A stretch of 25,267 nt of DNA. Origin: a virus. Its lineage: Duplodnaviria > Caudoviricetes. The notes under the pieces were generated by a model. It had not been told where the DNA came from, did no database searches, and worked only from the letters and a program-made list of their open reading frames with translations. This document shows, one piece after another, positions 1 through 17,728 of this stretch. How positions within the stretch are numbered: position 1 is the stretch's first letter; each line of letters begins with the position of its first letter. The stretch covers positions 1 to 25,267 of IMG/VR virus record IMGVR_UViG_3300032218_001124; one strand, 5' to 3'. The position numbers were made by a program, and so were the translations under genes.

Positions 1-417
1 AGTGTCTGCATCCCACTTCTCTTTTACTGGTTGTTGCCCTGCTGGCACTTGCCCAGTAGAGCCTGCTTGAGCAGGCTGATTCTGTTGTTGCTGTTGCTGC
101 TGTGGCTGTTGCGGCTGATTTGGTGGTGTTACTACAGTGATCTTCTTATCTTTAGCTAATTGATCAATCATGGGTCCAAATGTCTTTAGAACATTTGGAT
201 CATTAGTGGATAATATAGCAGGCTGTGTGCTTCCTGGTCCGCCACCTGGCTTTTCTGATGCAATAGGAACTTTATTAAGTACTGTTTCAAAGAAATCTTT
301 GAAAGTCTTTGGTTTAGCGTTTCTAACTTCAACAGATGTCGAATCTTCTGTTAGTTTCTTTTTAGCTTTAGGAGCTGTGCCTTGTAGCTTAGTTAATTTA
401 TCGAGAATGTCTTTCAT
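1..417 (-). CDS. Hypothetical protein, runs off the left edge (MKDILDKLTKLQ..., Q/P-rich segment); possible head/internal protein
   Basis: Manual translation: ATG at 417, open for 139 codons to base 1, starting 3 nt after the stop of 421..1047. Missing from the ORF track because no stop lies in the window. Confidence 0.8.
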   Translation of the reverse strand, partial: MKDILDKLTKLQGTAPKAKKKLTEDSTSVEVRNAKPKTFKDFFETVLNKVPIASEKPGGGPGSTQPAILSTNDPNVLKTFGPMIDQLAKDKKITVVTPPNQPQQPQQQQQQQNQPAQAGSTGQVPAGQQPVKEKWDADT

Positions 418-420
418 GTG

Positions 421-1047
421 TTACCCCCTACGAGAACCTGTCTCTGGTTTAGCAGGCAACTTTATCTTGCTCATGGGACTTGTTTGCCCTTTATTATCTA
501 CATAAGATTCTGGTTTAAATGGATCAAATGATGATGGTGTCTTCTTGCCTGCAAAAGGTATGTCTATCTTATCGCCAGTTGACTGGTCTTTTATACTTTC
601 AAGATAGCTACTACCATATGCTTTAGCCGCTTCTTTTGCACCAGGCTGTTCGCCTAGTTTTTCAGTGTCTAACAATGGACTGTCTTCTGCTTCGTTAGCA
701 TAACCTTCCATCTCAGAGTTGATACTGTCATCGAAATTAGTACCTATCACTCTTACCATATTAACATTATATCCAAGCAATTGAGCGATCTGTTGAATCA
801 TTGGCTCATTTGCAGGATAACGAAATTCTGCTTTGATTATATGTACAGGTTCATTCTTGATTCCTGGAAATCCATAAGGATCTTTCTGGATGGGTGTTGA
901 AACAGCATCCGAGATTTTTACAGGATCAAACTTCTTCAAGTTATACTTGAACATATCCAAAAACTTGTTGTCTACCTGTCCGGCTATTTTTATCGTATAG
1001 TTGTAAGTATGAACACTTTCTACAATAAATTGTTTCAATGAACGCAT
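421..1047 (-). CDS. Phage hypothetical protein, probably virion-associated
   Basis: 208-aa ORF with AAGGA SD and upstream TAAATA; N-terminus MRSLKQFIVES resembles T4 capsid-targeting leaders. Confidence 0.7.
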   Translation of the reverse strand: MRSLKQFIVESVHTYNYTIKIAGQVDNKFLDMFKYNLKKFDPVKISDAVSTPIQKDPYGFPGIKNEPVHIIKAEFRYPANEPMIQQIAQLLGYNVNMVRVIGTNFDDSINSEMEGYANEAEDSPLLDTEKLGEQPGAKEAAKAYGSSYLESIKDQSTGDKIDIPFAGKKTPSSFDPFKPESYVDNKGQTSPMSKIKLPAKPETGSRRG

Positions 1048-1072
1048 TGTGGATCCTTGCTATTATATAAGT

Positions 1073-1078
1073 TATTTA
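1073..1078 (-). promoter_or_regulatory. T4-late-type promoter box TAAATA
   Basis: GATAAATA 25 nt upstream of ATG 1047. Confidence 0.7.
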
Positions 1079-1087
1079 TCTAAAATC

Positions 1088-1561
1088 CTAATTTTTAGCA
1101 GCAAGTATTTTTAGCAGTTCGTTTCGGTCTAGTGATTGACCCTCACCTACCGGTAAACTATCGATTTCTTCTGTCTTCTGTGCAGTCTTAGCATCAAGAG
1201 CAGCTTTCTTTAATTGAAGATCAATCATCTTTAGTTTTTTATTGATCTTAGCTGTCTTGGCTGTTATAGCATGTCCTAGCATACTACTCGCACTATTAAA
1301 AATCTCACTGCTAAACCTAGCCTCGACTTGCATACCTAGATCCATCAAATCCTTGTAGCTTGATGTTGCCATCTCGGCTAATGCATCCATCTCATTGTCT
1401 GCTGCATCAAGACCTTTAACTGTAGGTAATGCACTCTCGATCTTTCCTAGACTAGTCAGTGCGTTCTCAGTTATTTCTTGAGTACGATCAGGCAACGGAA
1501 TCGTCAGATCATTTGGTTCTGTCTGTGATAATTCAAAAAGTTCTTCTAGTTTTTTTGTCAT
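1088..1561 (-). CDS. Helical phage protein; candidate terminase small subunit (gp16-like)
   Basis: 157 aa, helical-looking core (YKDLMDLGMQVEARFSSEIFNSASSML) and C-terminal RNELLK; size and layout recall T4 gp16. Function is inference. Confidence 0.45.
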   Translation of the reverse strand: MTKKLEELFELSQTEPNDLTIPLPDRTQEITENALTSLGKIESALPTVKGLDAADNEMDALAEMATSSYKDLMDLGMQVEARFSSEIFNSASSMLGHAITAKTAKINKKLKMIDLQLKKAALDAKTAQKTEEIDSLPVGEGQSLDRNELLKILAAKN

Positions 1562-1566
1562 GCAAT

Positions 1567-1580
1567 TATTTAGTTATTTA
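1567..1580 (-). promoter_or_regulatory. Tandem late boxes TAAATA (1575-1580, 1567-1572); proximal one 5 nt from ATG
   Basis: Minus strand TAAATAACTAAATA-ATTGC-ATG. Confidence 0.75.
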
Positions 1581-2008
1581 CGCCCATTATAAAAGATATC
1601 ATCTTCTGTTATCACACGGAAAGTCAATCCTTGCTGGCTACAATAAGCTCTAGCTGCTGCCCATTTTGCATGATTTACTGCTACTATCGCTCTATCTCTT
1701 GCACTTGCCTTGCGGCTCTCTATCAGACTTTGTTTCTTTGGTTTTATCTCTACTACTTCTGCTACTTTCTGTCCATTCTTATTTTGATAGATTATAAAAA
1801 AATCAGGTATGTATTGAGTAGGTTTACCTGTGAGTGGATTTCTATATGGAACTGCTATTGCTTCGCTAGCCCATTGTAATACACTATCATTATTGTCACA
1901 GAACTGCATGAACACTAGTTCCCACCCAGACCTATATCTAGGTTTATGTTTACCTACATATTTCTGAGGATTCCTAGGTTCAAATATTCCCTGAGCAAAC
2001 CTAGTCAT
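1574..2008 (-). CDS. gp4: Head completion nuclease, T4 gp4-like (TnsA-type fold)
   Basis: YRSGWE..FM.FCD....V.QWASE, YIPDF, VEIKP, N.AKW.AA, F.VITE motifs. Confidence 0.9.
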   Translation of the reverse strand: MTRFAQGIFEPRNPQKYVGKHKPRYRSGWELVFMQFCDNNDSVLQWASEAIAVPYRNPLTGKPTQYIPDFFIIYQNKNGQKVAEVVEIKPKKQSLIESRKASARDRAIVAVNHAKWAAARAYCSQQGLTFRVITEDDIFYNGRK

Positions 2009-2010
2009 CT

Positions 2011-2364
2011 CTATAACAAGACGTTTCTTTGTATTGCTTGATTAGGATTGGGTATTATACCTACTCCGTACAATGATTCTTTGCTCTTAAAAGTATTAAG
2101 ATAATATGTTATTATAGCTGTCTGCTGTAATTTAGTCTTGCCTTTGATCTGTTCTAATAAACTTACTGCATTATATCCTGACTGCTGCGCTATTCTAAAT
2201 AGAAAAGCAGTGAAATTACCTGCGATCTTAGTATTATTAGATATCCCTTTAAAGTAACTGTAAACGATATCGAATTCTGAAGCATTTACAACTAGCTTAT
2301 AGTTATAAAAACTGTCAAAAATAAGAATTGTTTTATCTGCTTTGTTTTGAGTTATCTGAGCCAT
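2011..2364 (-). CDS. Hypothetical late protein
   Basis: 117-aa ORF tiling with neighbours, own late box. Confidence 0.7.
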   Translation of the reverse strand: MAQITQNKADKTILIFDSFYNYKLVVNASEFDIVYSYFKGISNNTKIAGNFTAFLFRIAQQSGYNAVSLLEQIKGKTKLQQTAIITYYLNTFKSKESLYGVGIIPNPNQAIQRNVLL

Positions 2365-2369
2365 ATCAA

Positions 2370-2377
2370 TATTTATA
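2370..2377 (-). promoter_or_regulatory. Full T4 late consensus TATAAATA, 5 nt from ATG
   Basis: TATAAATA-TTGAT-ATG on minus strand. Confidence 0.8.
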
Positions 2378-2391
2378 CCGATAGCGTAATA

Positions 2392-3639
2392 CTAATCATT
2401 TATAGGAACGGGAAGAAATATAGGGTCAGTAGGACCAGCTCCCGAGACTTGCCGTCCTGTATAAATTGTTTCATCTGTATTTTGATCTATCAAATCTTGC
2501 AGAACACTAGCGCCCACGATCAATCCACCTGCTAATCCTGCAAACCCAGGACTAGACTGCGCTATAGGGACATTAAACATAGCGTTTCTCGCTGTCGGAG
2601 TGTTACCTAAGGTTGTTCTAAGCATTCCGTTTAACATTTCTCCAGTAATATCTGGATTTCTTTGTACTTGTTTAAATGAGTTATATGCTGATAATCCGCC
2701 TGCTACAGCTCCTATTAGATTACCGTTTTGTAATGCTTCTATAGCTCCACCAGCTGCATCTAATAATCCACCTTGACCTAGTATAGTACCTCTACCTTGA
2801 CCTGCTATTGGACTTGGTAAAGTATCATAGTGAGATGGATTTCCAAATCCCTTAACTATATTACCTGGTGACCTGCCGTCTAATGCTCCGTAGTCATAGA
2901 CAACAGTCTCATAATCTATTGTCATTCTATTACTCATCACACCTTGACCTTCGCTATAACTATATTGATCATGTCCAAAACTAGTTATGACTGGATTGAT
3001 AAGTGAGTATGCTGTAAAATTATGCTGATTAAGACCAAAGATAGTTATCTTTTTGAAGAAGGGCTGTTTTTTTCCAGGACCTGTACTATAACCGCCTTCA
3101 CCACCAGAATAACCATAACCCATATCATTAGATAATGATTGGTTATATAGATTTCTCATATTATAATTATTGATACTAGAGACTTGCCCCGGACCACCAA
3201 CTTGAGACCCTATAGAATTAGCGTCACCATAGTTATATTTGTAATATGCTTCCCATATTTTAGTTGACATATTACCACCATCATCATGGAATGTTATTTC
3301 GATGGGATCATATTTTATCTTAGTTTGTATGATTCTTTTTCTATTATATTGATTCATCTGTGAAGTGTTAAAACTATAATTAGGTAGTTTTATTTCTTTA
3401 ACAATCAATCCTAGATTATTTTCTACGCCTATCTCAAAATTGAAATCAAAATATACATGAAAGAGAAATTTTAATTTAGGAGCATTCTCGTAGCTATTTG
3501 TACGAAATACTTTTGCTGCGTGATTGTAATCACGAAGGATGGTGCCGGAGAAGAGTGAACTTACTCCGGCTACCGTTCCCAAAACATCATTTAATGTGTT
3601 CTGATTAAAACCTTGCCCTGGCTGCGGAAAAAGAGCCAT
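2392..3639 (-). CDS. Tail-tube-fold protein (gp19/gp54-like baseplate-tube junction) with Gly-rich C-terminus
   Basis: LP.....NQYNRKR...IKYDPIEITFHDD and ...MTIDYE tube-fold pattern; directly downstream of tail tube. Confidence 0.55.
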   Translation of the reverse strand: MALFPQPGQGFNQNTLNDVLGTVAGVSSLFSGTILRDYNHAAKVFRTNSYENAPKLKFLFHVYFDFNFEIGVENNLGLIVKEIKLPNYSFNTSQMNQYNRKRIIQTKIKYDPIEITFHDDGGNMSTKIWEAYYKYNYGDANSIGSQVGGPGQVSSINNYNMRNLYNQSLSNDMGYGYSGGEGGYSTGPGKKQPFFKKITIFGLNQHNFTAYSLINPVITSFGHDQYSYSEGQGVMSNRMTIDYETVVYDYGALDGRSPGNIVKGFGNPSHYDTLPSPIAGQGRGTILGQGGLLDAAGGAIEALQNGNLIGAVAGGLSAYNSFKQVQRNPDITGEMLNGMLRTTLGNTPTARNAMFNVPIAQSSPGFAGLAGGLIVGASVLQDLIDQNTDETIYTGRQVSGAGPTDPIFLPVPIND

Positions 3640-3655
3640 GTATCAGACCTTAATC

Positions 3656-4294
3656 TTAACGACCTATACCAGATACTGAACCTGTAAATCCATCAGCTTG
3701 TCTTGGGGTAGGTGAACCAACACCAGTACCAAGAGGAGCTTGAATTGCATTGTCAAAGCGAATTGTCAATGAGATTGTTACTACATCGTTAGTACCGTAG
3801 TTTAATGTGTTATAGTTTGCAGTCTGCACGAAACAACCATATAGTTCCCATGTCTCAAGAACTAATGGAGTTGCAGTGCCATTGCCACCGTCTAAGATTT
3901 CTAAGTTTGTCTGGAACTTATAGTCTTGACCTGTAGCTGCACTTGCCATCTCTACGAAGTCAAGTTGTTTCTGAATCTGCTGACCTACTGCCTTTGCTAC
4001 GCTTCCGCTAGCATCGTCACGTATGTTGCAAGTCATAGACTGCCACTGATGTTTACCAGCAAGATATAATGTTGAATTATATACAGGAAGAGTAATTTCC
4101 TGAAACTGCACGTTTGGACGTGAGCAGTCTACTACCTGCTTAGTAAGTGAAAGTCCAGCTGTTGGCCCCAAACCAAAGTTCAAGAAATTTATACGATATC
4201 TGAACTGTAGTTTTGGCATCAACAAGCCCTGATTGCCGCCACCGTTATCAGTTGGGACCGTCATGTTGAACAATGATTGTGAGGCTGTTGCCAT
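3656..4294 (-). CDS. gp19: Tail tube protein, gp19-like
   Basis: RP.V.F.EI, YLAGK..W, WELYGCF, L.Y...DVVTISLTIRFD; follows sheath; AGGAG SD. Confidence 0.85.
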   Translation of the reverse strand: MATASQSLFNMTVPTDNGGGNQGLLMPKLQFRYRINFLNFGLGPTAGLSLTKQVVDCSRPNVQFQEITLPVYNSTLYLAGKHQWQSMTCNIRDDASGSVAKAVGQQIQKQLDFVEMASAATGQDYKFQTNLEILDGGNGTATPLVLETWELYGCFVQTANYNTLNYGTNDVVTISLTIRFDNAIQAPLGTGVGSPTPRQADGFTGSVSGIGR

Positions 4295-4315
4295 TTTATA
4301 TTCTCCTAATAACTT

Positions 4316-4321
4316 TATTTA
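4316..4321 (-). promoter_or_regulatory. Late box TAAATA for tail tube
   Basis: GATAAATA-AAGTT-ATTAGGAGAATATAAA-ATG. Confidence 0.75.
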
Positions 4322-4329
4322 TCATTAAT

Positions 4330-4356
4330 TTGCGTCCCGCGTTATGCGGGACGCAA
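4330..4356. terminator. 11-bp GC-rich hairpin after sheath stop (terminator or 3' stabiliser)
   Basis: TTGCGTCCCGC-N5-GCGGGACGCAA; no U-tract on the coding strand. Confidence 0.55.
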
Positions 4357-4363
4357 TGTTTTA

Positions 4364-7300
4364 TTACTTGTTACCGATTGCGCCTGTATTCAATACACGA
4401 ATTGGAATGTAGATGAATTCAGCAGCTTTCACTGGTTCGATTGCAACGTCTACCCAGAGTTCGTTTCTATCGATACGAGCAGGGGTATTGTTTGATTCAT
4501 CGCAGACTACCAAGAAGTCATAAATGCCTCTCTTTGCTACGAGATCAACGAACAATGTCTGTACTACACCTGCGATTGCATCACGGGTGATCTTATCGTT
4601 TGGTTCGAAAACGAATGGTCTTGCTGCGATAGTAAGTTGCTTGCGGATGTATGCGATAAGTCTTGCAACGTTGATACGATCAAGTGCTGACTGACTTGCA
4701 TAGCTACCTTTATTACCATAATTGAGCAAACCGTTTCCTGTAAAATACACCATTGGGTTGATGTAGTTGATGTACAGAGTATCACGTAGACCTATGTTAG
4801 TCTTGATAGTCTGGAATTCACCAGTCATCGCATCGATATAACCAATATTTGTAGCATTGTCGATGATACCGCGACGTGTACCTGCTGGAGCAAACCAAGG
4901 ATAAGCTACAGTGTCGTTACGTAGTATAGTACGGATCATCATATGACTTGAAGGAACCGCTACTAGATTGCCACTTAGATCACTTGCGATACCTGATGGA
5001 TAGAAAAGACCCATATAAGTATCACGTGTCACAAGTCCATCTTCACCTGAAGAAGTAGCACCTGCAGCATTAGTTGCCCATGCTTGAATTGCTGTACCAC
5101 TTGCCGCTAAGCGGAATGGTGTATCACCAACGATAAATGCTGTATCACCTCTATCATTATTGAGCGTAACCATGTTAGGCTGCAATTCAGTGTAACCAGG
5201 ACATGCGATCAAGTTGAAATCGTTGTCTTCATCACGTATACCGCTGCTAGTATCCATTGCAACACGCAATGCTTTTACTACCATAGCACGTTGAGCCTTA
5301 CGACCCATATATGCTGCACCATTTGCCTGCAAGCCAGATTCTGTTACCCATGTGTCAGCGTTTGATGGAATGCTTTGACCTGGGAAGCTCAAACTATTGA
5401 AATAATTTCTACGATACGCTTTTACATTATATCCTGAACGACGACTGTTAAACAATAACATGCCAACTGGATATAGTGTATAGCTAGGAGCATCAAGATC
5501 AAGGTTGTTGCTTGAAAGTAGGCTCTTGATGGATGAGATAGGATCATCGTAAGCATTGATAGCATTCTGATTTGTTGACCAGCGAGCATCAGCAAATAGT
5601 ACACCTGTGCTGCTTGTCTGATCTGAGTTATCTAATGTGACCCACATATCAACACCGTCCACCTGTTGCCAACGATTGATCATTGGATAGTTCTCAAGAT
5701 CACTAGTGTCGATCCAGATGTCACCGTAATGTAGTGCAGTCACACCATCGCTCTGTGTAGTTGGCTCGCTTGCGCTGATGATTGGTCCGTTGACATCAGT
5801 GCGATTTGTTCCTGTTTGAGGAAAACCATTTCTATCATAGCTTGAATTCCTGTAGCCTTTCCATCCTGTAGATGTTCTGATCATGATATCTACTTGGTCT
5901 ACTACAGAATAGAACCAATTTGTCATGTCAGCTGGTCTTGCTGTTGGAGCACCAAGTCCTGCAGTCATGTCAAATTCTACCCAGTTTGAAAGTTGTACAG
6001 AATAAGCATTAGCAGGTACACCGCTTTCAAATTCTACGTAAGTCACCGCAGTAGTTACGCCATCGATACCTGCAACTTTCACGACTAAATCGTTAGCTGG
6101 TGTTGTTCCACCTAATCTTGCACCTGATATAGTTATAGTTTCACCTACTGCATAGTTACTGCCTGCATTAGAGAATGAGTTCTGTGTTACACTGTATGTT
6201 CCGTTTTGAACAAAAACATATGGAACGAATCCAGTACCACTACCTGATGTAGATGTTTGAGCAGGAGTATAAGAGAAGTATAATTCAAAACCTTCTTTTA
6301 CTCCACCTGTAGTACCTATGATAAATCCAGCATCTGTCATGAGTCCATTACTGTATCCAGTAGCACTACTAAAATCATTGACTAATATAGTACCACCGGC
6401 TGTGTGTGTTAGCTGTAGTTCGCCTGTATCAAGTACAGTGCATTTAGTGAATGGTATTGCTGCTGCACCCCATGCTTGTGCAAAGTCATCTGCTGTAGCA
6501 TTATCTGATACAGTTAGATAATAGTTTGAACTCAAAAAACTAGATCCAGGTATCGATACCTGTACAGTAGCCGTGTATGGTCCATTTGTTAATGATGGAG
6601 CTGAAGAAGCAGTTATGATAGTAGCTCCAGTAGTCAGTCTTTTCCAATAATATATCGGAGAAATACTGCTGCGTCCTTCGTTATCATAGTAATATTGTGC
6701 ATAAACAGTATCTGCTGGTATAGCACTGCCACCTGTTGCATCTAGATCGGATATAGCAGTCCAATCAGCGCTGGAATAAGAAACATTTAAACTATTCCAG
6801 TTCGCTGTTACTGAATTATATTGATTAACGTAGCTAGTAAGTCCGTTACCTGCTTCACCGATTTTGATCCATACACTTCCGCTTGGACGTGGAGAGGTTT
6901 GTCCAGATTGCCATAGTGGTTGTTCCGCAGAAGTACCATACTGAAGCAATGGTTGACGATAAATTCCTGCTGTCAATCCAAGCTGAGCTAATGCGTCAGG
7001 GGATCCTGTACCCAGAGTTATATAAGCTGATGAATCATGATTAGATGTTATAGGTGCATATATTGTCAATTTTCCATTTACTACTGATGCATTGACATAT
7101 GTTCCAGGGAGACTATTGATATCCTGAGCAACGATACTTACTACATTATTCGGAGCTCCTTGAACTGTGACAGTCTGTACCTTGCCATTACCTACTTGTA
7201 TTGTAAATGTATTTCCTGTTGTTAGTGTTGGGTTTGCTGTGGTTGCCTGCACTGCAGGTACAGAGTTTAACCATCCTGCTGAACCAAGACGCTGCCATAC

Positions 7301-7939
7301 ACCATTCTGATCTTTCTTGAAAAACATTCCTGAATTACTTGACAAAGGATAAGCATAGGTTGGAATAGCAATAACCGCATAATCACCTACATTTCCTAAA
7401 CTGTTTAATGGGAAACGTCCTCCTGTAATCTGCACCGGATTTGTAATCACGATAGGAGTCTGTAAGTTGAAAATTCCCTTTACTTGATCGAATTCATAGA
7501 TACCCCATGTAGAGATACTAGTGTCTAACCACCATGAACCATCAGCTGGAGCACCTGTTGGGCGTCCTGTCTTTCCTACTAGACTTGCTAGATCGATATC
7601 TGCTCTTACGGCATATACTCTATTAGTAACACCTAGTGCAGAGTAAGCTGCAAGCAATCCATATTCGTTGAGTTCATATCCTTGGATAGGAGTACCATTT
7701 GTAGTTGTATAGAAGAATGGATTACCAAAAGTTGTAACAAGATCACGTTGACTTGTAATCTGATACATTTTCCCTGCATTTGCAGCAGTAGTACCAGTTG
7801 CTACTCCTGTAGAAGTAGGATCAGCTTTGTTTTGCGCTGTTGCAAAAACAATAAGCGGAGTTGAAGCTGTTGGTGCTGGCAAGTATTGACTCTGATCAAC
7901 TACTGTGACTGATACACCCGGTGAAGTTAATTGCGGCAT
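4364..7939 (-). CDS. gp18: Contractile tail sheath protein, gp18-like, with large insertion
   Basis: N-terminal SPGVSVTVVD, FGNP; C-terminal PWFAPAG..RG, INP, RINV.RL, FEPND, V.CDESNNTP..IDRNEL, EFIYI. Confidence 0.95.
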   Translation of the reverse strand: MPQLTSPGVSVTVVDQSQYLPAPTASTPLIVFATAQNKADPTSTGVATGTTAANAGKMYQITSQRDLVTTFGNPFFYTTTNGTPIQGYELNEYGLLAAYSALGVTNRVYAVRADIDLASLVGKTGRPTGAPADGSWWLDTSISTWGIYEFDQVKGIFNLQTPIVITNPVQITGGRFPLNSLGNVGDYAVIAIPTYAYPLSSNSGMFFKKDQNGVWQRLGSAGWLNSVPAVQATTANPTLTTGNTFTIQVGNGKVQTVTVQGAPNNVVSIVAQDINSLPGTYVNASVVNGKLTIYAPITSNHDSSAYITLGTGSPDALAQLGLTAGIYRQPLLQYGTSAEQPLWQSGQTSPRPSGSVWIKIGEAGNGLTSYVNQYNSVTANWNSLNVSYSSADWTAISDLDATGGSAIPADTVYAQYYYDNEGRSSISPIYYWKRLTTGATIITASSAPSLTNGPYTATVQVSIPGSSFLSSNYYLTVSDNATADDFAQAWGAAAIPFTKCTVLDTGELQLTHTAGGTILVNDFSSATGYSNGLMTDAGFIIGTTGGVKEGFELYFSYTPAQTSTSGSGTGFVPYVFVQNGTYSVTQNSFSNAGSNYAVGETITISGARLGGTTPANDLVVKVAGIDGVTTAVTYVEFESGVPANAYSVQLSNWVEFDMTAGLGAPTARPADMTNWFYSVVDQVDIMIRTSTGWKGYRNSSYDRNGFPQTGTNRTDVNGPIISASEPTTQSDGVTALHYGDIWIDTSDLENYPMINRWQQVDGVDMWVTLDNSDQTSSTGVLFADARWSTNQNAINAYDDPISSIKSLLSSNNLDLDAPSYTLYPVGMLLFNSRRSGYNVKAYRRNYFNSLSFPGQSIPSNADTWVTESGLQANGAAYMGRKAQRAMVVKALRVAMDTSSGIRDEDNDFNLIACPGYTELQPNMVTLNNDRGDTAFIVGDTPFRLAASGTAIQAWATNAAGATSSGEDGLVTRDTYMGLFYPSGIASDLSGNLVAVPSSHMMIRTILRNDTVAYPWFAPAGTRRGIIDNATNIGYIDAMTGEFQTIKTNIGLRDTLYINYINPMVYFTGNGLLNYGNKGSYASQSALDRINVARLIAYIRKQLTIAARPFVFEPNDKITRDAIAGVVQTLFVDLVAKRGIYDFLVVCDESNNTPARIDRNELWVDVAIEPVKAAEFIYIPIRVLNTGAIGNK

Positions 7940-8010
7940 AATTTTTTCCTTTTTGTATGATTTTGAGGTTTACCACCTGTCTTAACACTATGCTAAGAGT
8001 TTCTAATGAT

Positions 8011-8016
8011 TATTTA
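8011..8016 (-). promoter_or_regulatory. Late box TAAATA for sheath (about 66-nt leader)
   Basis: GCTAAATA upstream of a hairpin-containing leader and AAGGA SD. Confidence 0.7.
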
Positions 8017-8065
8017 GCATAAACAACAAAAAAGTGTCTATAACCGAACCTTCAAAGGTTTTTTC

Positions 8066-8071
8066 TAAATA
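8066..8071 (+). promoter_or_regulatory. Late box TAAATA, 5 nt from ATG 8077
   Basis: TAAATA-GTATC-ATG; divergent from the sheath promoter. Confidence 0.75.
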
Positions 8072-8076
8072 GTATC

Positions 8077-8424
8077 ATGAAAAGACCAATATGTAATCAA
8101 TGCAATAAAAATCACTGTGCAGTTAACTATGTTAAACAGGGAGTTAGGCACTATAGGAGTATATGCGATGATTGTGGTAAGAAAAAATCCAAAAAGAAAC
8201 CCAGGTTCTTTGCCTGGGAAAAAGCAGGGTATAAGAAAAAACCCGCATGTGATCTATGCGGGTTTAAAGCAGTGTATCCTTCTCAATTATCTGTCTTTCA
8301 TATAGACGGTAACTTGAATAACACTGAGTTTATCAATCTAAGAACCATATGCCTCAACTGCATAGAGGTAGTGAAAAAGAAAGATGTTACTTGGAAACGA
8401 GGAGATTTAGTGGTTGATTATTAA
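8077..8424 (+). CDS. Zinc-binding HNH-like protein (possibly degenerate nuclease)
   Basis: Four CxxC pairs; HIDGNLNN...NLRTICLNC HNH-type motif. Confidence 0.75.
   Translation: MKRPICNQCNKNHCAVNYVKQGVRHYRSICDDCGKKKSKKKPRFFAWEKAGYKKKPACDLCGFKAVYPSQLSVFHIDGNLNNTEFINLRTICLNCIEVVKKKDVTWKRGDLVVDY
8191..8218 (-). terminator. Intrinsic terminator antisense within the HNH-like gene
   Basis: CCCAGG-CAAAGAA-CCTGGG-TTTCTTTTT. Confidence 0.6.
8233..8265 (-). terminator. Intrinsic terminator antisense within the HNH-like gene
   Basis: (AAA)CCCGCAT-AGATCAC-ATGCGGG-TTTTTTCTT, about 140 nt past the dNMP kinase stop. Confidence 0.7.
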
Positions 8425-9039
8425 CTCTATCTGTCTATGTAATTCATCTATAGTGCCGTTGTTATCAAGGTAAAAATCATATTTCAACCCTACACTGCTA
8501 TATTCACTGGCATGTATATTGAATTCGTTTTCAAGTTGAGTCTTATAAAGATCCCTTAGATTTGCATTTTCTGTCTGATTAAACTGTTTTGCTAGAAACA
8601 ACCAATCTGGGTCTGATCCTCTGTGAGTCCTTAATACTATTCCGCCACTTTCTCTGATAGCATTGATCTCGTTGATGAAGCGGCAGTCAGTAATAACTAC
8701 GTTATCTTTTAAATTACGTATTTTATTTTCTACGCTTGCTACCCAGATGTCTTGGTGAAAACCCCTACGTAATACTTCTGTGCCCCAATGTTGTAATACC
8801 CATCGAGGTGTTATTTCCATACCTAAACGTTTTGACCACCATTCATCTTTTTGTTCACGCCAATCTCTACTAGCTTTAGTAGAGCCTTCGAGTAACTCTC
8901 TATCCCATCCAAACACGGCTGAGACAGAATCTTTCAGAGTACTTGCGAAACTCATACGCCTATAACCATGGAAACGACAGAGATAATCAGCAGCAGTGTC
9001 TTTACCAGACCCTATAAGGCCTGTAATTCCTATTATCAT
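8407..9039 (-). CDS. Deoxynucleoside monophosphate kinase (T4 gp1-like)
   Basis: P-loop GLIGSGKDT, SFA..LK, TPR.VLQ.WGTE, ITDCRF.NE, H.SE, NNGTI. Confidence 0.9.
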   Translation of the reverse strand: MIIGITGLIGSGKDTAADYLCRFHGYRRMSFASTLKDSVSAVFGWDRELLEGSTKASRDWREQKDEWWSKRLGMEITPRWVLQHWGTEVLRRGFHQDIWVASVENKIRNLKDNVVITDCRFINEINAIRESGGIVLRTHRGSDPDWLFLAKQFNQTENANLRDLYKTQLENEFNIHASEYSSVGLKYDFYLDNNGTIDELHRQIELIINH

Positions 9040-9560
9040 TATTCCTCCTGATCATCAGAAGATTCATCTTCTTCGAGAAATTCCATATGCGATTCATGCT
9101 GGTATTCTAGATTTGCAAATTCAAAGATATCTTCAGGAATCTCTCGCAATTGATCTATATCATCAAGATAGTCAGAATAATCATAGTGATCCTCATCACC
9201 ATCTTCATACTTTCCACAAAAGCACATGCCTTCTTCACTGTATAGTGCAGATACGACATACCCTTGTTCTTCGATGAATTGATAAAAAGAGATAGGAGGA
9301 CTCCATGCTGTATCGAAATTAATCGTCAGCGATTCATCTCTGATGAATTCATGGCTGCTGATATTGGCATCCCATTTAGTCCCCCAGTTATCAACATTCC
9401 AGCTGTACCAATTATCTTCTTCACTATCAGGTCGCGGATGCAATATTTGAAAAAATTTAATATCCTCATACTCTTGATTGTCCAATGTATCACCAAGTTC
9501 ATTGATTTTTTGAACATCTGTGTGATTGAGCGTGAGTGAATTATAACACCAATTTGGCAT
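9039..9560 (-). CDS. YubB ferredoxin-like / DUF1281-family protein
   Basis: MPNWC.N, WY.WN..NWGTKWD, FDTAWSPP motifs; AAGGAG SD; acidic C-terminus. Confidence 0.8.
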   Translation of the reverse strand: MPNWCYNSLTLNHTDVQKINELGDTLDNQEYEDIKFFQILHPRPDSEEDNWYSWNVDNWGTKWDANISSHEFIRDESLTINFDTAWSPPISFYQFIEEQGYVVSALYSEEGMCFCGKYEDGDEDHYDYSDYLDDIDQLREIPEDIFEFANLEYQHESHMEFLEEDESSDDQEE

Positions 9561-9587
9561 GATTTTCTCCTTTAGAATATATTATAA

Positions 9588-9616
9588 ATAATAACACCAA
9601 AGAAGTATCGTGTCAA
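9588..9616 (-). promoter_or_regulatory. Sigma70-type (early) promoter
   Basis: TTGACA-17 nt-TATTAT with extended -10 TG. Confidence 0.8.
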
Positions 9617-9624
9617 CTACTATT

Positions 9625-10410
9625 TTAACCTTGTATCCAGGTCAATGGTTGTGACCAATCTTGATATTTTCTAAGATCGTCTAACAGAGCGTCTTGTTCA
9701 GCTTTTGCTTCGGCTTTCAAGGCAGCACCATTTAATGATGTGCCACCACCTGGACCCGCAATTGTTCCGAACTTCTCACGTGCTTCACCTAAGATAGCTT
9801 TCAGTTCTGCTAGGATGAAATCTCCTATCCATACACCTGTCGAAGGATCTTGTAATAGTTCTGATTCGGGACGCTGTATATCTGCCCAGATAAGTATGCG
9901 TTCACCGCTGCCCTTGAAATCTCTGGTTAGTCTTAACTGTTTTGTAACTGGATTAAAAGTATAAGTTAGATAACCACCGAACATACGAGCAGCTAATTCG
10001 ACATATCCTGCATAGAAGTCGTATGTTGCCATACCACCTGTGTAGTTGTAGTTCAACAAATATGTATTAAGGATAGCACTTGAGAAAGGATCAAATGCGC
10101 TAGAACCTGGACCAGTCTCTAAACCAACTGTCCTTCTGAAAACTGCACGAACATTCATAAAATCTGTAGGAAGTGTATAGGTATCTACATTTTTTTCTAC
10201 AGTCATCAATGTATATGATTCTTTTGTAGCGTTCTGGGCTCGCTGACGGTAGATCCTTATAGCATAGATATATGCCGCTTCATAATGAGCAGGATCAAGT
10301 TCTAGATCCACGATATCTCCGCCTAGACGAAGGCGAAGATTCTCGAACAAGTTTTGTTTTATTTCTTCAAGTGAGAAATTATTGGGTATGTTTAATACAT
10401 TATCAGGCAT
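9625..10410 (-). CDS. gp13: Neck protein / head-tail adaptor, gp13-like
   Basis: LRLG..IVDLEL N-terminus; G..R.KF..I.GPGG..SLNG..LK.EA C-terminus. Confidence 0.8.
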   Translation of the reverse strand: MPDNVLNIPNNFSLEEIKQNLFENLRLRLGGDIVDLELDPAHYEAAYIYAIRIYRQRAQNATKESYTLMTVEKNVDTYTLPTDFMNVRAVFRRTVGLETGPGSSAFDPFSSAILNTYLLNYNYTGGMATYDFYAGYVELAARMFGGYLTYTFNPVTKQLRLTRDFKGSGERILIWADIQRPESELLQDPSTGVWIGDFILAELKAILGEAREKFGTIAGPGGGTSLNGAALKAEAKAEQDALLDDLRKYQDWSQPLTWIQG

Positions 10411-10453
10411 ATTGTTTCCTCGTTATTATTATTTATCAGGAAACAATATGCCT
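10405..10453 (-). promoter_or_regulatory. 16-bp hairpin covering SD and AUG of the gp13-like gene, with late box TAAATA (10430-10435) in the loop
   Basis: AGGCATATTGTTTCCT-N17-AGGAAACAATATGCCT, perfect inverted repeat. Confidence 0.85.
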
Positions 10454-10460
10454 TGATATA

Positions 10461-10871
10461 CTAGAGATCGCCTTCCTTGCGATTCTCACTGTAATGTGCA
10501 TCAAACTTCCCACCTGGATATCGTGCTTCCAGCTTACGAACGTTTTCAGCAATCACTTCATTGGGATCATATCCTAATGCACGACAAGCGTTAGTCCAAT
10601 ACCATATGATATCACCTAGCTCACGCATCATGTGGAATCTATTCTCTTCAGTAAGAGGTTTGCCTTGGAATAACATCTTCTTGATGATCTCATTAAACTC
10701 GCCAGTCTCGCTAGCAAGTCCAATACCAGAAGTCAAGAGAAGTGACACATTTACCCCTTGTTCCCCGTCTAGATTTCGCATTTGGATTTCTAATGCTTCT
10801 AGCTTGTTTGAGCTATCGCTGGTCACGGCGCTGACAAATTCTGTATAGCGATTAAGATCGATATTACTCAT
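10461..10871 (-). CDS. mazG: MazG-like NTP pyrophosphohydrolase
   Basis: GLASETGEF.EIIKK, ELGDIIWY, N..KL..RYP. Confidence 0.9.
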   Translation of the reverse strand: MSNIDLNRYTEFVSAVTSDSSNKLEALEIQMRNLDGEQGVNVSLLLTSGIGLASETGEFNEIIKKMLFQGKPLTEENRFHMMRELGDIIWYWTNACRALGYDPNEVIAENVRKLEARYPGGKFDAHYSENRKEGDL

Positions 10872-11043
10872 TGATGATTCCCATTACCCAGTTTTCTACT
10901 ACTTCTTCTGCATACCTGATGTTATGATCGGATACATCGATTGTCCGAACAAAACGACTATCTTCATATAAATCTACGACATAACCTTTATGGTTCTGCT
11001 TTATTACTGCATTCCTGTTTTCGTGATATTTGTATTCTTTCAT
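10864..11043 (-). CDS. 59-aa hypothetical protein not in the ORF track (MKEYKYHENRN...YAEEVVENWVMGIINE)
   Basis: Manual translation; fills the gap, starts 1 nt after the upstream stop, overlaps the mazG start by 8 nt. Confidence 0.8.
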   Translation of the reverse strand: MKEYKYHENRNAVIKQNHKGYVVDLYEDSRFVRTIDVSDHNIRYAEEVVENWVMGIINE

Positions 11044-11044
11044 T

Positions 11045-12250
11045 TCACCATGCCTTCAAAATAATCATGTCTTCATTGAAGCGACCATTGGGTACAGACT
11101 GAACTGCTTTGATTGCTTCAAAAAATTTACGTGCTGTTGGCTTGCTACCAGTCATTGCTTTGATCTGTTCTGCTGGTTTGCGAAGCGTCTTTACTCCGCT
11201 CTGCTTCTTATCAAAGCCCAATATTGCATTACCCTTGATCAACAACACCTTGCTATAATCATCGGCAACGTAATGATGCATCTTACGCTTACGGGTATCA
11301 TAGACCCAAGCTTCGCTTGCTTCATGCAATTTTACAGGATGCAAGCCTACGAGGTCAAGCTTGATAGTAGGATCTTTGAAACTCTTACAATGCTTGAGCT
11401 TAGATACGATCTTCTCTACTGGGACAGGCTTGCGCTTGCGAGGGGCCTTTGTTGCCTTCTTGATACTGACATATCCGTTAAGCTGTGCGATGACAGCTTC
11501 TGTGAATTTTATCAGATTCTTCATCTGAGTCTTACTGTAATGAGAGTATCCCTCATTAAGCTGTTCACAAGTTCCAGCTTGGGCTTCTTTGTATTCTGCA
11601 AGTACCCCTTCGAGGCGCTTTAGATAAGGTGCGACATGCTGGGGCAAGACATTGCGTGTCTGAAACTCGGCCAATACCTTTTTGTCTATGTCAACACTCT
11701 TGCATCCAGCCTTGACGAAATCATCAAAAAATCCTTCAACTTCACCCGCAGCCTCGTCTGCCCGCTCACGCATCACTTCTTGGATATTGACACGGTTATT
11801 CTTCTTCAACGCATCTGCTTCTTCGGAAGCAAGAGAACTCTTACCAGAAGTCACAAGCTTGTCGATTGCTTGCTGAACATATTCGATGTTGCGCGGGGTC
11901 AATTCAAGTCCGCGCATCGCACAACGTGCGACCCAACCTGCGGTAGTGATCATCTGATGATCAGGGGCGCGGCGAATTAGTTTGATAGTTTCTTTATCTG
12001 TCTTTTTTGTTTCAAGATAACTGATGAGGAATTCCTTAGCCTCTTTATGAGTATAAAAATGGCTGTACCAGTTATAAGCACCCATCAAAATGAACTCTCG
12101 GCGGTCAGGATCAGGTTGACCCTGACTGAAGCTAGGTTCGGGCCCATAATATTTCAAGTCAGAGTCTCTAGGCACCAGATCCTTGACGAGGGTATTACCG
12201 CTATTGGGCACAACCATACCCCTAGGAATTGCTTTTTTACGGGCCGCCAT
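11045..12250 (-). CDS. Basic phage hypothetical protein, probably early
   Basis: 401-aa ORF, GGAG SD, own sigma70-type promoter. Confidence 0.8.
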   Translation of the reverse strand: MAARKKAIPRGMVVPNSGNTLVKDLVPRDSDLKYYGPEPSFSQGQPDPDRREFILMGAYNWYSHFYTHKEAKEFLISYLETKKTDKETIKLIRRAPDHQMITTAGWVARCAMRGLELTPRNIEYVQQAIDKLVTSGKSSLASEEADALKKNNRVNIQEVMRERADEAAGEVEGFFDDFVKAGCKSVDIDKKVLAEFQTRNVLPQHVAPYLKRLEGVLAEYKEAQAGTCEQLNEGYSHYSKTQMKNLIKFTEAVIAQLNGYVSIKKATKAPRKRKPVPVEKIVSKLKHCKSFKDPTIKLDLVGLHPVKLHEASEAWVYDTRKRKMHHYVADDYSKVLLIKGNAILGFDKKQSGVKTLRKPAEQIKAMTGSKPTARKFFEAIKAVQSVPNGRFNEDMIILKAW

Positions 12251-12281
12251 TTGTCACTCCAAATCTTGACTTTATGTATAT

Positions 12282-12310
12282 ATTCTACACTGGAAAAAAT
12301 GATTTGTCAA
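12282..12310 (-). promoter_or_regulatory. Sigma70-type (early) promoter
   Basis: TTGACA-17 nt-TAGAAT. Confidence 0.8.
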
Positions 12311-12345
12311 GCCTTATTTTTGGCTTTATAACCCATTGATTTGTA

Positions 12346-12450
12346 TCAATAAAAATGCATCTCTATGAAGATAGCACAGGCCATCATTGATATTAGAAAT
12401 GCAAAATAAAAAAGTGTGAGGGCATCTAATACCCTATCATATTTACCCAT
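12346..12450 (-). CDS. 34-aa single-pass membrane protein not in the ORF track
   Basis: MGKYDRVLDALTLFYFAFLISMMACAIFIEMHFY; SD AGGTGAT; promoter directly upstream. Confidence 0.65.
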   Translation of the reverse strand: MGKYDRVLDALTLFYFAFLISMMACAIFIEMHFY

Positions 12451-12478
12451 TAATCACCTAAATATATGTTGTTGTTAG

Positions 12479-12507
12479 AATTTATCATAAATCTGCCCTC
12501 ATGTCAA
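12479..12507 (-). promoter_or_regulatory. Sigma70-type (early) promoter
   Basis: TTGACA-17 nt-TAAATT with extended -10 TG. Confidence 0.65.
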
Positions 12508-12517
12508 TCTTTTTCGA

Positions 12518-12523
12518 TAAATA
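12518..12523 (+). promoter_or_regulatory. Late box TAAATA, 5 nt from ATG 12529
   Basis: GATAAATA-ACTAT-ATG. Confidence 0.75.
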
Positions 12524-12528
12524 ACTAT

Positions 12529-14277
12529 ATGCCTAGATTATCGTTATATCGTCCAAATAAAGAAAACGACTACAGATTTATGGACAGAACCATCTCTGAA
12601 CAACTCAGTGTGGGAGGGACTGATCTTTACATACACAAGTATTTGGGTATAGCTGATCAAGGTCCTTCTACAGATTACACTCAACCACAGTATACTACTC
12701 CTGATCCTACACAGATACAGGATCTACTGTTTTTAGAGAACAGAGACAGGAAATATGATACTAGCATCTATCGATTACGTGGTCATTATAATGTTCAGAA
12801 TCTAGACTTCGATCTAAGCCAGTTTGGATTATTCCTGAACAATGATATCATATTCATAACTGTTCACTATAACGATATGATCGATATCATAGGTCGTAAA
12901 TTGATGGCTGGTGATGTCCTAGAATTACCTCATCTAGTAGATTATAATCCATTAAAAGAAAGCATACCTATCGCATTGAAAAGATATATGCAGATAACAG
13001 ATGCAAATTATGCAAGCGAAGGGTTTAGTCAGACTTGGTACCCACATCTATGGCGCATAAAGTGTGAGAAGTTAGTCAATACACAAGAATTCAAAGATAT
13101 ATTACAAGCTCCTGTAAATCAAGATAATTATCTAGGTGATTTTAATCCTAACAAAACATATCCTGCAGGATATACTATCACATATGGTGGCAAAGTATAT
13201 AAATCTCTGATAGATGTACCAGCTGGAATAACACCACCAAACGCAACATATTGGGGTGTAGTAGAAAACGGAAGCATAGCAGATATAATCTCTACATATA
13301 ATAAAAACCTTTCTATCAATGATGCTGCATTGAATGAAGCCGAGAGAATTGTTCCTAAATCAGGATATGATACTAGTAAGTTCTATGTCATGCCTACATA
13401 TGGAAAATATCAAGCTAATGGTAAATTGGCGCTTACTCAAGAAAATAAACCTGCACCTCCTATCAATATAAATGTAAACCCAAACAACACTCCGGGTAAT
13501 ACGAACTTATCTGGTACTGTCATGATGGTCAGAAACCCAAGATTCAGAAATAATGCAGCAGGGTTAAGAATATCTAAAAAAGTACTAGAAAATATATGGG
13601 ACATAACAGCAGATACTGTAGCCGAGACGTTTAATAAATTCACGTATACTACTCTTAATATATTGGAATTAGATCCTGTCAAGATGGATACAGGGTCTGG
13701 ACCTGTTGAAAAAACAAGAATACTACAGATAGAATCTCTAGGTGAAGCTACTAGTCCATATGGTACCGCAGATAACACATATGCTACTGCGGATCAAGAC
13801 CCAACACAGCCTAATTTCACTGGCGACGTAACTATAAACATGGACTTTAGAGCAGACTGTATTCCTGGATTCCAGTTTATTGCTAGAAGCACACCTAAAT
13901 CATTTGGTTATAGTGCAGGCTATGGATCAGGAGACGGTATTCCACCGAACGGCATACCTCTCAATGAAAACGGAGCATACGGAGCTAGCGGTGCTGGCAT
14001 TACTTTCCCGCCTAATCCCCAAGTTGGAGATTATTTCTTAAGAATAGATTATCTACCACAGATATTATATCGCTGGGATGGAGTTAGATGGGTACGCATC
14101 AGCACTAATGTACGCACTGAGACTGGATTCGCTGACACAACTAACCAATCACAGCTTAATAGCTTTATTAATGACCCCAATACTATCTATCTAAATAATG
14201 AAGGTAAGCGTGTATCTGAATTACAACCATTATCACAGATATTAACTTTAAAACCAGATTCATTGCCACCAGAATAA
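12529..14277 (+). CDS. gp14: Enlarged neck / head-closure protein, gp14-like (start revised from 12466)
   Basis: LSQFGL...D.I.I..H, GDVLELP, W.IKCE pattern; upstream of gp15-like gene; MPRLSLYR start fits TAAATA-N5-ATG. Confidence 0.65.
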   Translation: MPRLSLYRPNKENDYRFMDRTISEQLSVGGTDLYIHKYLGIADQGPSTDYTQPQYTTPDPTQIQDLLFLENRDRKYDTSIYRLRGHYNVQNLDFDLSQFGLFLNNDIIFITVHYNDMIDIIGRKLMAGDVLELPHLVDYNPLKESIPIALKRYMQITDANYASEGFSQTWYPHLWRIKCEKLVNTQEFKDILQAPVNQDNYLGDFNPNKTYPAGYTITYGGKVYKSLIDVPAGITPPNATYWGVVENGSIADIISTYNKNLSINDAALNEAERIVPKSGYDTSKFYVMPTYGKYQANGKLALTQENKPAPPININVNPNNTPGNTNLSGTVMMVRNPRFRNNAAGLRISKKVLENIWDITADTVAETFNKFTYTTLNILELDPVKMDTGSGPVEKTRILQIESLGEATSPYGTADNTYATADQDPTQPNFTGDVTINMDFRADCIPGFQFIARSTPKSFGYSAGYGSGDGIPPNGIPLNENGAYGASGAGITFPPNPQVGDYFLRIDYLPQILYRWDGVRWVRISTNVRTETGFADTTNQSQLNSFINDPNTIYLNNEGKRVSELQPLSQILTLKPDSLPPE

Positions 14278-14286
14278 TAGGATATT

Positions 14287-15663
14287 ATGGAACACTTTTT
14301 TTATGATAATCAGGTAAGAAGATTCCTGATTCAGTTTGCAAAGATTTTTTCAACTTGGTATGTTACCAATGGTAGAGATCCTAATGGCAATGAGATCCTT
14401 GTTCGTGTTCCTATCATGTACGGAGATGCTAGTAGACAGGCTGCTACGATCATATCTAATAACTCAGCTAGTAGTTTGCCTACTGCGCCCATGATCACAT
14501 ACTATATAAGTGGGTTAGAGTACGATCAAAGAAGAACACAGAATCCAACTTTCGTCGAAAAGATAAACGTTTCACAAAGAGCCTATAATCAAGACACGCA
14601 AACATATGAACAAGTTCAAGGACAAGCATTCACAGTAGAGAGATTGATGCCTGTACCTTATACATTGCGTGTTACTGTAGATTTCTGGACAACAAATTAT
14701 CAACAAAAACTTCAATTGATAGAGCAATTAGGTACCTTATTTAATCCTGGTCTAGAGATACAAAGCACCGATAATTTTATTGATTGGACTTCATTGAGTG
14801 TAGTATATCAAGATGGTTTGACTTTCAGCGGACGTACCATACCAGTAGGTACTAATAATCCTATTGACATCATGACATGGAAGTTCTACATGCCCGTATG
14901 GTTAAGCACTGCAACTAAACTAAAAAAGATGGGCGTCATTCAAAAGATCATCGCAAGTATATACAAAGGTCATGCATTAGAAGACATTCAGAACGAAGAT
15001 TTGTTGTTAGGAACAAGACAAAAAATAAGCCCATATGGTTATAAAGTATTATTGTTAGGTAATAAGTTACAATTACTGCCTGCTAATGAACCATTCGTCC
15101 CAACTAACAATGATCTATCTATTCCTTCAAATCCAAATACTAATTTATATTGGTCAGCATTGTTAAACGTGTATGGAAAAGTTAAACCTGGTATAAGTCA
15201 GATATGGTTACAAAATCAATATATCGAAAATGATATCGTAGGGACTATCGTTCCCGACCCAAACGATGATAGGTTCTTGATTTACAATATTGACCCTGAT
15301 ACTTTGCCACAAAATACATTAGCTCCGGTCAATAGTATCATAAATCCACAGTTGACTGGTCCGAATGCTGGTCTACCAGGACCTATGCCAGGTGTAAGAT
15401 ATTTGATAGTCGATAATATAGGTCACGAGGGAGCTCCAACAGAAGCCTGGGGCAATCTAATTGCAAACGCAAATGATATCATTGAATATGATGTAGATCA
15501 AAGCAAATGGATAGTAAGCTTTGATAGCAAAAATGCCACGACTGTTCAATTTGTCACAAATTTAACAACTACTATGCAATATAGATATGCACCAAATGAA
15601 GAAGTTTGGATGAAATCATATGAAGGTTGGTATAATGAAGGTGACTACAGCATTGTCATCTAA
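14287..15663 (+). CDS. gp15: Tail terminator / sheath stabiliser, gp15-like, with C-terminal extension
   Basis: FFYD..VRRF...F..IFS, VPIMYG, YD..R, PVPY.L, Q.IEQ...F.P motifs; AGGA SD. Confidence 0.8.
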   Translation: MEHFFYDNQVRRFLIQFAKIFSTWYVTNGRDPNGNEILVRVPIMYGDASRQAATIISNNSASSLPTAPMITYYISGLEYDQRRTQNPTFVEKINVSQRAYNQDTQTYEQVQGQAFTVERLMPVPYTLRVTVDFWTTNYQQKLQLIEQLGTLFNPGLEIQSTDNFIDWTSLSVVYQDGLTFSGRTIPVGTNNPIDIMTWKFYMPVWLSTATKLKKMGVIQKIIASIYKGHALEDIQNEDLLLGTRQKISPYGYKVLLLGNKLQLLPANEPFVPTNNDLSIPSNPNTNLYWSALLNVYGKVKPGISQIWLQNQYIENDIVGTIVPDPNDDRFLIYNIDPDTLPQNTLAPVNSIINPQLTGPNAGLPGPMPGVRYLIVDNIGHEGAPTEAWGNLIANANDIIEYDVDQSKWIVSFDSKNATTVQFVTNLTTTMQYRYAPNEEVWMKSYEGWYNEGDYSIVI

Positions 15664-16069
15664 CATATTGAATCAAGCTGCTGGTGTTTTCTTTTATGCT
15701 AAGAATACATCTAGATATCTTTATCTATTACGCAATGACGATAAAAATAACACTTGGAGCATCCCTGGCGGAAAGATAGAAAAAGACGAGACTCTACTGG
15801 ATGGTATCGCTAGAGAGTGCGTCGAAGAATTAGGTTTTTTCAATAATGATTGGAAATTGATACCTATACAAAAATTCGTGAACAAGAGTTTTGTATATCA
15901 TACTTTTTTCTGTCAGATATCAGATGAATTCATCCCTGATTTAAATTTCGAACATATAGGATATGCTTGGGTAAATGAAGGATATTATCCTAAACCATTG
16001 CATCCCGGATTATTTTCTACGGTTAATATAGATATAGTGACAGATAAACTTAAGCAACTTGAAAAATAA
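15620..16069 (+). CDS. NUDIX hydrolase (true start may be the in-frame TTG at 15653)
   Basis: Nudix box G-KIEKD-E-TLLDGIA-RECVEELG; EH.GYAW, PLHPG. Confidence 0.9.
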   Translation: MKVGIMKVTTALSSNILNQAAGVFFYAKNTSRYLYLLRNDDKNNTWSIPGGKIEKDETLLDGIARECVEELGFFNNDWKLIPIQKFVNKSFVYHTFFCQISDEFIPDLNFEHIGYAWVNEGYYPKPLHPGLFSTVNIDIVTDKLKQLEK

Positions 16070-16090
16070 AAAAGGCACTAAGCTTTTTTT
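16068..16090. terminator. Weak terminator-like hairpin between convergent genes
   Basis: A6-GGC-ACTAA-GC-T7; very short GC stem. Confidence 0.3.
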
Positions 16091-16439: not shown

Positions 16440-16449
16440 GATCTATTCC

Positions 16450-17715: not shown

Positions 17716-17728
17716 TTGTTTCTCCTTA

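Follow-up and report, generated by a model that had tools for sequence, protein, structure and literature searches.

Among the convergent gene overlaps of Escherichia coli, Rho-independent terminators have been predicted in 23 of 116 genes, an arrangement that the accessible part of the report calls dual coding (PMC2174442). In six cultured Pseudomonas phages, 9% of 268 termination sites are antisense to genes according to the available portion of an ONT-cappable-seq study (PMC10914365). The accessible sections on phages PA5oct and CBB describe TTGAC/TATAAT promoters and many predicted intrinsic terminators (PMC7318152, PMC5259590), and in CBB an ATAAATA motif before structural genes is predicted to be late (PMC5259590). 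Intrinsic termination in a convergent overlap is a known, ordinary mechanism.

Here we analyse a hairpin, H1, on the antisense strand of a gene for an HNH-like protein in a virus record of 25,267 bases (completeness 7% by CheckV), the whole of which we call the window. A first-pass annotation had proposed that H1 and a neighbouring hairpin, H2, are intrinsic terminators overprinted on this gene, which stop an early transcript before the sheath gene. Like the E. coli overlap terminators, H1 lies inside the coding sequence of the convergent partner; those are single-genome predictions for which no covariation or amino-acid analysis was found in the accessible text, whereas H1 can be followed through 209 homologs (PMC2174442). 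The antisense sites of the Pseudomonas phages, in the portion of that study available, are measured RNA ends, while H1 is described by comparison only and belongs to an uncultured group (PMC10914365). What appears to be new here is the family-wide, amino-acid-changing compensation together with a shift of register. In a literature search confined to main texts and reaching few subscription journals, we found no precedent for amino-acid-changing compensation in a terminator and no report of a phage family in which an antisense stem limits the choice of amino acids; the available portions of three further articles contain nothing on the H1 locus (PMC9723584, 10.64898/2026.02.18.706586, PMC13714241).

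Methods

Four scans supplied the homologous loci (80 of 164, 120, 80 of 99, and 72 loci); the 120-locus scan used a pattern that ignored the variable bases of the stem, for which about 2,100 matching stretches were estimated. From the first 200 loci and the window, 4 without codons 25-95 were set aside and the remainder was reduced to 156 at 95% nucleotide identity. The later 152 loci included 1 without the anchor motif, 2 short ones and 53 new ones (the fresh sample), and the total is 209 non-redundant rows, window included.

Loci were classed by the left-arm bases facing the invariant bases, which gave 74 in register A, 45 in register B, where the stem is shifted by one base relative to register A, and 90 in neither; the classes were drawn up after the first alignment was seen, yet using left-arm bases only. 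The covariation scan compared every two columns up to 45 nt apart across the genes for the HNH-like protein, the kinase and the sheath. A FastTree tree was built from 170 of the 209 rows with the hairpin columns left out. For the synonymous null, amino acids were held fixed and codons redrawn. All promoter assignments are motif matches.

Results

The window encodes a tail tube, a sheath, a head-tail adaptor, MazG and a sheath-stabiliser. The C-terminal part of the sheath is 51% identical to its counterparts in the Pseudomonas jumbo phages PA5oct and Paride, 49% to that of Atu_ph07 and 45% to that of CBB, and related contigs reach 359 kb, so that the source phage is most likely an uncultured jumbo myophage. 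In PA5oct and Atu_ph07, unlike here, the annotation shows neither an HNH-like nor a kinase gene next to the sheath. The HNH-like ORF has the sheath gene divergent on one side and the deoxynucleoside monophosphate (dNMP) kinase gene convergent on the other (Table 1), and the gene order is conserved among homologous loci. The overlap of the kinase gene with the 3' end of the HNH-like gene, already pointed out in the first-pass annotation, amounts to 18 nt in the window and recurs in 180 of the 186 loci in which the kinase end was located. The DUF1281_C-domain gene was not found next to the HNH-like gene in the 80 (of 164) first-scan loci. No DNA was found for relatives above 78% protein identity; P0001 (98%) is known as protein only.

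Table 1 Features of the locus, numbered from the first letter of the window
Feature	Position	Strand	Basis or remark
Tail sheath gene	4364..7939	-	PHROG 10581, E 1.3e-207
TAAATA motif, predicted late promoter of sheath	8011..8016	-	Downstream of H1 and H2
TAAATA motif, predicted late promoter of HNH-like gene	8066..8071	+	Faces the kinase transcript
HNH-like protein gene, 115 aa	8077..8424	+	ORF; carries the overprint
H2, 6-bp stem (8218-8200) and UUUCUUUUU (8199-8191)	8191..8218	-	Scan, fold, recoding
H1 U tract UUUUUUCUU (U6CUU)	8233..8241	-	Reverse of Lys53-Lys55 codons AAG AAA AAA
H1 stem-loop, likely terminator hairpin	8239..8265	-	10 bp, 7-nt loop; fold and covariation
dNMP kinase gene	8407..9039	-	PHROG 139, E 1.8e-50; last gene before H1
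DUF1281_C-domain gene	9039..9560	-	Between adaptor and kinase
Sigma-70-like promoter TTGACA-17-TATTAT	9588..9616	-	Motif match; predicted source of the H1-reaching transcript
TAAATA of adaptor gene	10435-10430	-	Motif match

Two further hairpins lie near the sheath gene. Between the sheath and tube genes (4330-4356) there is a strong hairpin of 11-12 bp (-21.9 kcal/mol), which lacks a good U run on the strand of the sheath gene and whose core, CCCGCAT..GCGGG, is similar to that of H1. In the sheath 5' UTR (7965-7978, minus strand) a small hairpin, AGGT-GGTAA-ACCT, stands just 5' of the ribosome-binding site; its type is matched in 108 of 161 loci, with variants GAGGGTAACAACCCT and GAGGCTTACGGCCT that look compensatory, and it is possibly an element of translational control or stability.

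The HNH-like protein has eight invariant cysteines among 57 aligned proteins. It matches its PHROG profile weakly (E 2e-4), scores 14.6 bits in Pfam, under the cut-off of 21.4, and has no Foldseek match at E 0.001, the top rows being mostly His-Me proteins. With HNH (His-Me finger) endonucleases (PHROG 10822 / PF01844) and their catalytically altered kin, for example DotN/IcmJ, it has the spacing CxxC..HIDG..N..NL..C..C in common. His75, which we take to be the general base, is present in 176 of 209 rows. Positions 74 and 96, presumably the usual metal ligands, are Phe or Tyr in 200 of 209 rows and mostly Val, Ile or Gln with His in 1 of 209, respectively, and the general-base His and two metal ligands expected of an active HNH endonuclease are not jointly kept. 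Because the HNH matches are weak and the usual ligand positions are replaced, the protein is probably an inactive HNH-fold, putative zinc-binding protein. It is widespread (799 matches), has no close match among cultured phages and, in contrast to a mobile endonuclease, keeps a fixed place beside the sheath; a non-catalytic DNA-binding or structural late protein is a candidate role.

Both hairpins and their U runs lie where the first-pass annotation had placed them, and the minus-strand sequences agree. From 8265 to 8239 on the minus strand H1 reads AAACCCGCAT-AGATCAC-ATGCGGGTTT, with core arms CCCGCAU/AUGCGGG at 8262-8256 and 8248-8242. It covers the codons for P56-A57-C58-D59-L60-C61-G62-F63, so that one stem does span the CDLC codons (C58 to C61), and the U tracts are indeed the reverse of Lys codons, Lys53-55 for H1 and Lys39-41 for H2. 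The fold of H1 (-13.9 kcal/mol, z -4.3) is equalled by none of 200 shuffles, and under synonymous recoding of the window the terminator rule is satisfied with p 0.016. A lone match in a terminator scan means little, since positions 1-20000 hold 17 terminator-like sites against 10.6 +/- 3.6 in shuffles. In a 60-locus subsample, the 37 stem-class loci are about 8.7 kcal/mol more stable than the synonymous null, and the H1 site is the sole strong stability peak across codons 25-93. In Rfam no family exceeds its gathering threshold, and the one match is at chance level (E 0.72, 17.1 vs 49.5 bits).

The H1 terminator rule is passed by 114 of the 209 homologs, 18 of them among the 53 loci of the fresh sample. 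Among the first 156 loci, 96 pass where synonymous recoding predicts 8.0. One arm of the stem is formed by the nearly invariant Cys61-Gly62-Phe63 and the other by Lys55 and residues 56-57. As the stem borrows the invariant codons 61-63 for one arm and the Lys run for its U tract, residues 56-57 must supply the matching arm.

Matched changes between the two arms follow this layout. In register A, the first base of codon 56 and the third base of Gly62 form a Watson-Crick pair in 67 of 74 loci (24.5 expected), as CG in 30, GC in 24, AT in 9 and TA in 4; the codon combinations are CCC/GGG, GCC/GGC, ACC/GGT and TCC/GGA, that is, Pro, Ala, Thr and Ser at residue 56. The first base of codon 57 and the third base of Cys61 pair in 65 of 74 loci (39.9 expected), as Thr with TGT or Ala with TGC. 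In register B, where residues 56-57 are Pro-His or Pro-Gln, the third base of codon 56 and the silent base of Cys61 are paired in 42 of 45 loci (24.0 expected). Compensatory changes in syntenic homologs, which the first-pass annotation had named as a check, are in each of these cases found above expectation. The 90 stem-less loci show 21 Watson-Crick pairs between Gly62 base 3 and residue 56, against 21.1 expected. The H1-positive loci use 10 dipeptides at positions 56-57, the H1-negative loci 47.

A blind scan of column pairs by class ranks the H1 pairs 1 and 3 of 43,172 in register A and 4 of 32,280 in register B, and at chance in the stem-less class; with the classes pooled and kinship uncorrected, they rank only 28 and 160 of 52,278, under lineage-driven pairs. 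RNAalifold, given 162 nt, predicts the H1 helix alone in both register classes, and none of 500 shuffles reaches the H1 pairing or covariation score. Six of the ten register-A pairs are without free variation. In the fresh sample the link between codon 56 base 1 and the Gly62 silent base holds in 8 of 9 loci (3.1 expected), the remaining H1 pairs being too few for testing.

Descent was taken into account by means of the tree. Independent pairs on it changed in the expected direction in 5.0 of 5, 2.0 of 2, 2.7 of 6, 6.2 of 7 and 2.5 of 5 comparisons and in the opposite direction in 0, the remainder showing no difference; only one of the five tests, the fourth (0.031), has p <0.05 alone. Of 11 comparisons in the stem-less control, 3.5 went the same way and 2.0 the opposite way. 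By parsimony, 16 of the 17 changes of the Gly62 silent base fall on branches common to changes of codon 56 base 1, compared with 3/7, 7/15 and 11/31 for unpaired silent-site controls. On this comparative evidence H1 is under selection for base pairing.

Strand preference was assessed from tolerated mismatches. Across four covarying columns there are 22 minus-strand and 2 plus-strand G-U wobbles against an expectation of 46:29 (p 0.001, for rows that are not independent and with a fifth, margin-driven column left out). Of the register-A loci, 58 of 65 have an uninterrupted U6 adjoining the stem, and of the stem-less loci 22 of 56, these being equally the counts of AAA AAA codons for Lys54-55; among register-B loci, C often interrupts the U run. 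On the plus strand, none of the 95 register-A/B loci passes the terminator rule at the H1 site, and a search for a reciprocal plus-strand terminator within the kinase gene, with 3 matches in 142 loci, led us to reject that candidate. At the level of sequence, H1 combines the features of an intrinsic terminator, namely a stable GC-rich stem, a U tract, compensatory pairing (seen in the 119 loci of registers A and B and missing from the other 90) and a place on the transcribed strand, the last judged from the wobble bias and from an upstream promoter that is a motif match only. We consider H1 to be the likely intrinsic terminator of the dNMP kinase transcript, with an RNA 3' end predicted near 8235-8233.

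An attenuator or antisense peptide was also considered and rejected. In 66 of 74 register-A loci a minus-strand ATG lies within the stem, but the ORFs that begin there range from 8 to 69 aa and share no length. The predicted 3' UTR contains ATG ORFs of at least 15 aa in 45 of 209 loci, at scattered positions, no more than 2 of 209 have minus frames open over 80 codons, and RNAalifold shows no competing helix.

H2 behaves differently from H1. Its minus strand reads CCCAGG-CAAAGAA-CCTGGG, followed by the U run, with a fold of -11.1 kcal/mol (z -0.6) that is matched by 49 of 200 shuffles; under synonymous recoding of the window the rule gives p 0.029. Among the homologs 12 of 209 pass: 10 of the 156 (1.55 expected), four of which form one clade, nearest the window on the tree and with a different inner stem, and 2 weak cases among the 53 fresh loci. 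The inner pairs do not covary significantly (best 12 of 27 vs 8.1, p 0.053), and the Pro42 codon is CCC in only 27 of the 78 loci where pairing is possible. We therefore reject H2 as a family trait, given 12 passes in 209 and no significant covariation. The proposal of two overprinted terminators is likely to hold for H1, which is kept by matched changes; H2 is present here without being conserved and compensatory changes for it were not borne out. That H2 may serve as a working backup terminator in this phage is a tentative reading against which we lean.

The H1 rule is failed by 95 of the 209 homologs. On the tree, presence of H1 requires at least 28 changes and re-registering 7, and the median terminal branch is 0.135 for stem-less rows and 0.075 for others. 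Among stem-less loci, another minus-strand terminator match was found in 4 of 54, while the sigma-70-like site is retained in 24 of 32; neither a Rho proxy (C-over-G skew) nor GC content differs by H1 status. Intergenic room was rejected as a cause of loss: of the 6 loci whose gap measures at least 40 nt, 5 lack H1 (p 0.087), and none of these 6 gaps holds a terminator. Since stem-less loci keep the sigma-70-like site and have almost no replacement terminator, either H1 would be favoured but dispensable, or factor-dependent termination would take its place. Separately, five loci (L025, L032, L061, L084, L265) carry an insert of 626-775 nt that separates the stop of the HNH-like gene from the end of the kinase gene, with no terminator in the insert; 4 of the 5 fail the H1 rule.

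The sigma-70-like site in the window precedes the DUF1281 gene. Across loci such a site (>=9 of 12) lies at most 72 nt from the kinase start in 72 of 101 cases, against 30 of 802 control windows. TAAATA, which resembles the ATAAATA of CBB in the accessible part of its description (PMC5259590), is present in all 113 intergenic regions on the strand of the sheath gene and in 107 of the 113 on that of the HNH-like gene; window-wide it is not enriched (24 vs 37.7 expected), and 13 of the 24 sites, judged by eye and one per gene, precede a gene start on the same strand by at most 90 nt. The stretch separating the two divergent TAAATA motifs contains a palindrome, AACCTTCAAAGGTT (8047-8060), whose type is matched in 130 of 161 intergenic regions, most often as ACCTTCGAAGGT, independently of H1 status; it is possibly an operator or a shared promoter element. 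In one clade (L005, L012, L017, L058, L062 and relatives) only a few bases separate the sigma-70-like -10 box from the kinase ATG downstream of it and a ribosome-binding site is lacking, which suggests a leaderless kinase mRNA there.

These elements point to a scheme in which host RNA polymerase would initiate at the sigma-70-like site, transcribe the DUF1281 and kinase genes, continue for about 170 nt antisense to the HNH-like gene from codon 115 to codon 53, and be released at the predicted 3' end. Termination there would shield the sheath and tube genes, for which a late promoter of their own is predicted, and would leave the HNH-like gene free of antisense transcription across its start and promoter; the sheath would be the first structural gene entered by any read-through beyond H1. 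By coordinates, the kinase and HNH-like transcripts are predicted to overlap by 170 nt; in an excludon, an overlapping transcript of this sort would lower the expression of the gene opposite. The earlier proposal that an early transcript is stopped before the sheath fits this promoter layout, against which stand the 95 homologs without H1. Because no minus-strand terminator was found in the window scan between the adaptor gene and H1, the transcript is likely but not exclusively early: transcripts from the adaptor TAAATA may also end at H1.

Discussion

A reader may accept that the minus strand folds here and still ask whether H1 releases polymerase. It could instead be a pause, a 3'-end protecting structure or a processing site that defines the antisense RNA relative to the HNH-like mRNA: covariation and wobbles speak to structure and strand rather than to polymerase release, the hairpin is set about 140 nt beyond the kinase stop, and the U run is present in every homolog because Lys53-55 is conserved. 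The excess of an unbroken U6 beside the stem in register A is needed by a terminator and not by a stability stem, and we regard this reading as improbable. Considerably less probable still is a DNA palindrome bound by protein, as an operator or cruciform. Most of the variable cells are strictly Watson-Crick and the stem of the window folds slightly better on the plus strand, as such a site would allow; all four pair types at one position and two registers occur, so that pairing is kept and sequence is not, and the tolerated mismatches are almost only minus-strand G-U.

The usual layout of a -1 frameshift signal has a spacer between the run and the stem. A ribosome pause or frameshift signal in the HNH-like mRNA would find an A-rich run directly 5' of the stem, and a run of nine A is avoided in 209 of 209 loci (Lys53-55 is never coded AAA AAA AAA, which is consistent with avoidance of slippage). 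Here, however, the A run is followed by the stem without any spacer, the wobbles disrupt pairing on the plus strand, and no plus-strand terminator was found at the site; we give this reading hardly any credence. The same faint credence is left for the idea that the two hairpins arise as side effects of codon bias and of a conserved protein motif, KKKP..CxxCGF. It draws on the invariant pairs of register A and is adequate for most of H2, where CCCA/TGGG comes from Pro-Arg/Lys and Trp-Glu codons. For H1 we reject it on the recoding null with amino acids fixed, on covariation and on the class-wise scan, in which Gly62 base 3 tracks residue 56 in stem-bearing loci only. An intrinsic terminator of the kinase transcript remains our preferred reading of H1.

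We also considered that H1 sets the length of the antisense overlap, with the 170-nt 3' UTR of the early kinase mRNA silencing the late HNH-like gene until the late switch and lineages toggling the stem; we hold this to be rather unlikely. If it were true, lineages would gain, lose and re-register the stem through amino-acid substitutions beside a putative zinc knuckle, and protein evolution at positions 56-57 would read out selection on antisense RNA.

This locus offers a natural case in which an RNA signal on the opposite strand would decide the amino acids to be found in a protein. At position 56, Pro, Ala, Thr or Ser follows the silent base of Gly62, at position 57 Thr or Ala follows that of Cys61, and Pro-His or Pro-Gln marks a one-base shift of the stem. 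Such overprinted sites would mislead analyses of protein coevolution and selection. Because matched lineages with and without the stem are available, the cost of a terminator in protein freedom becomes testable, as does the way in which a large uncultured phage group insulates its early from its late genes.
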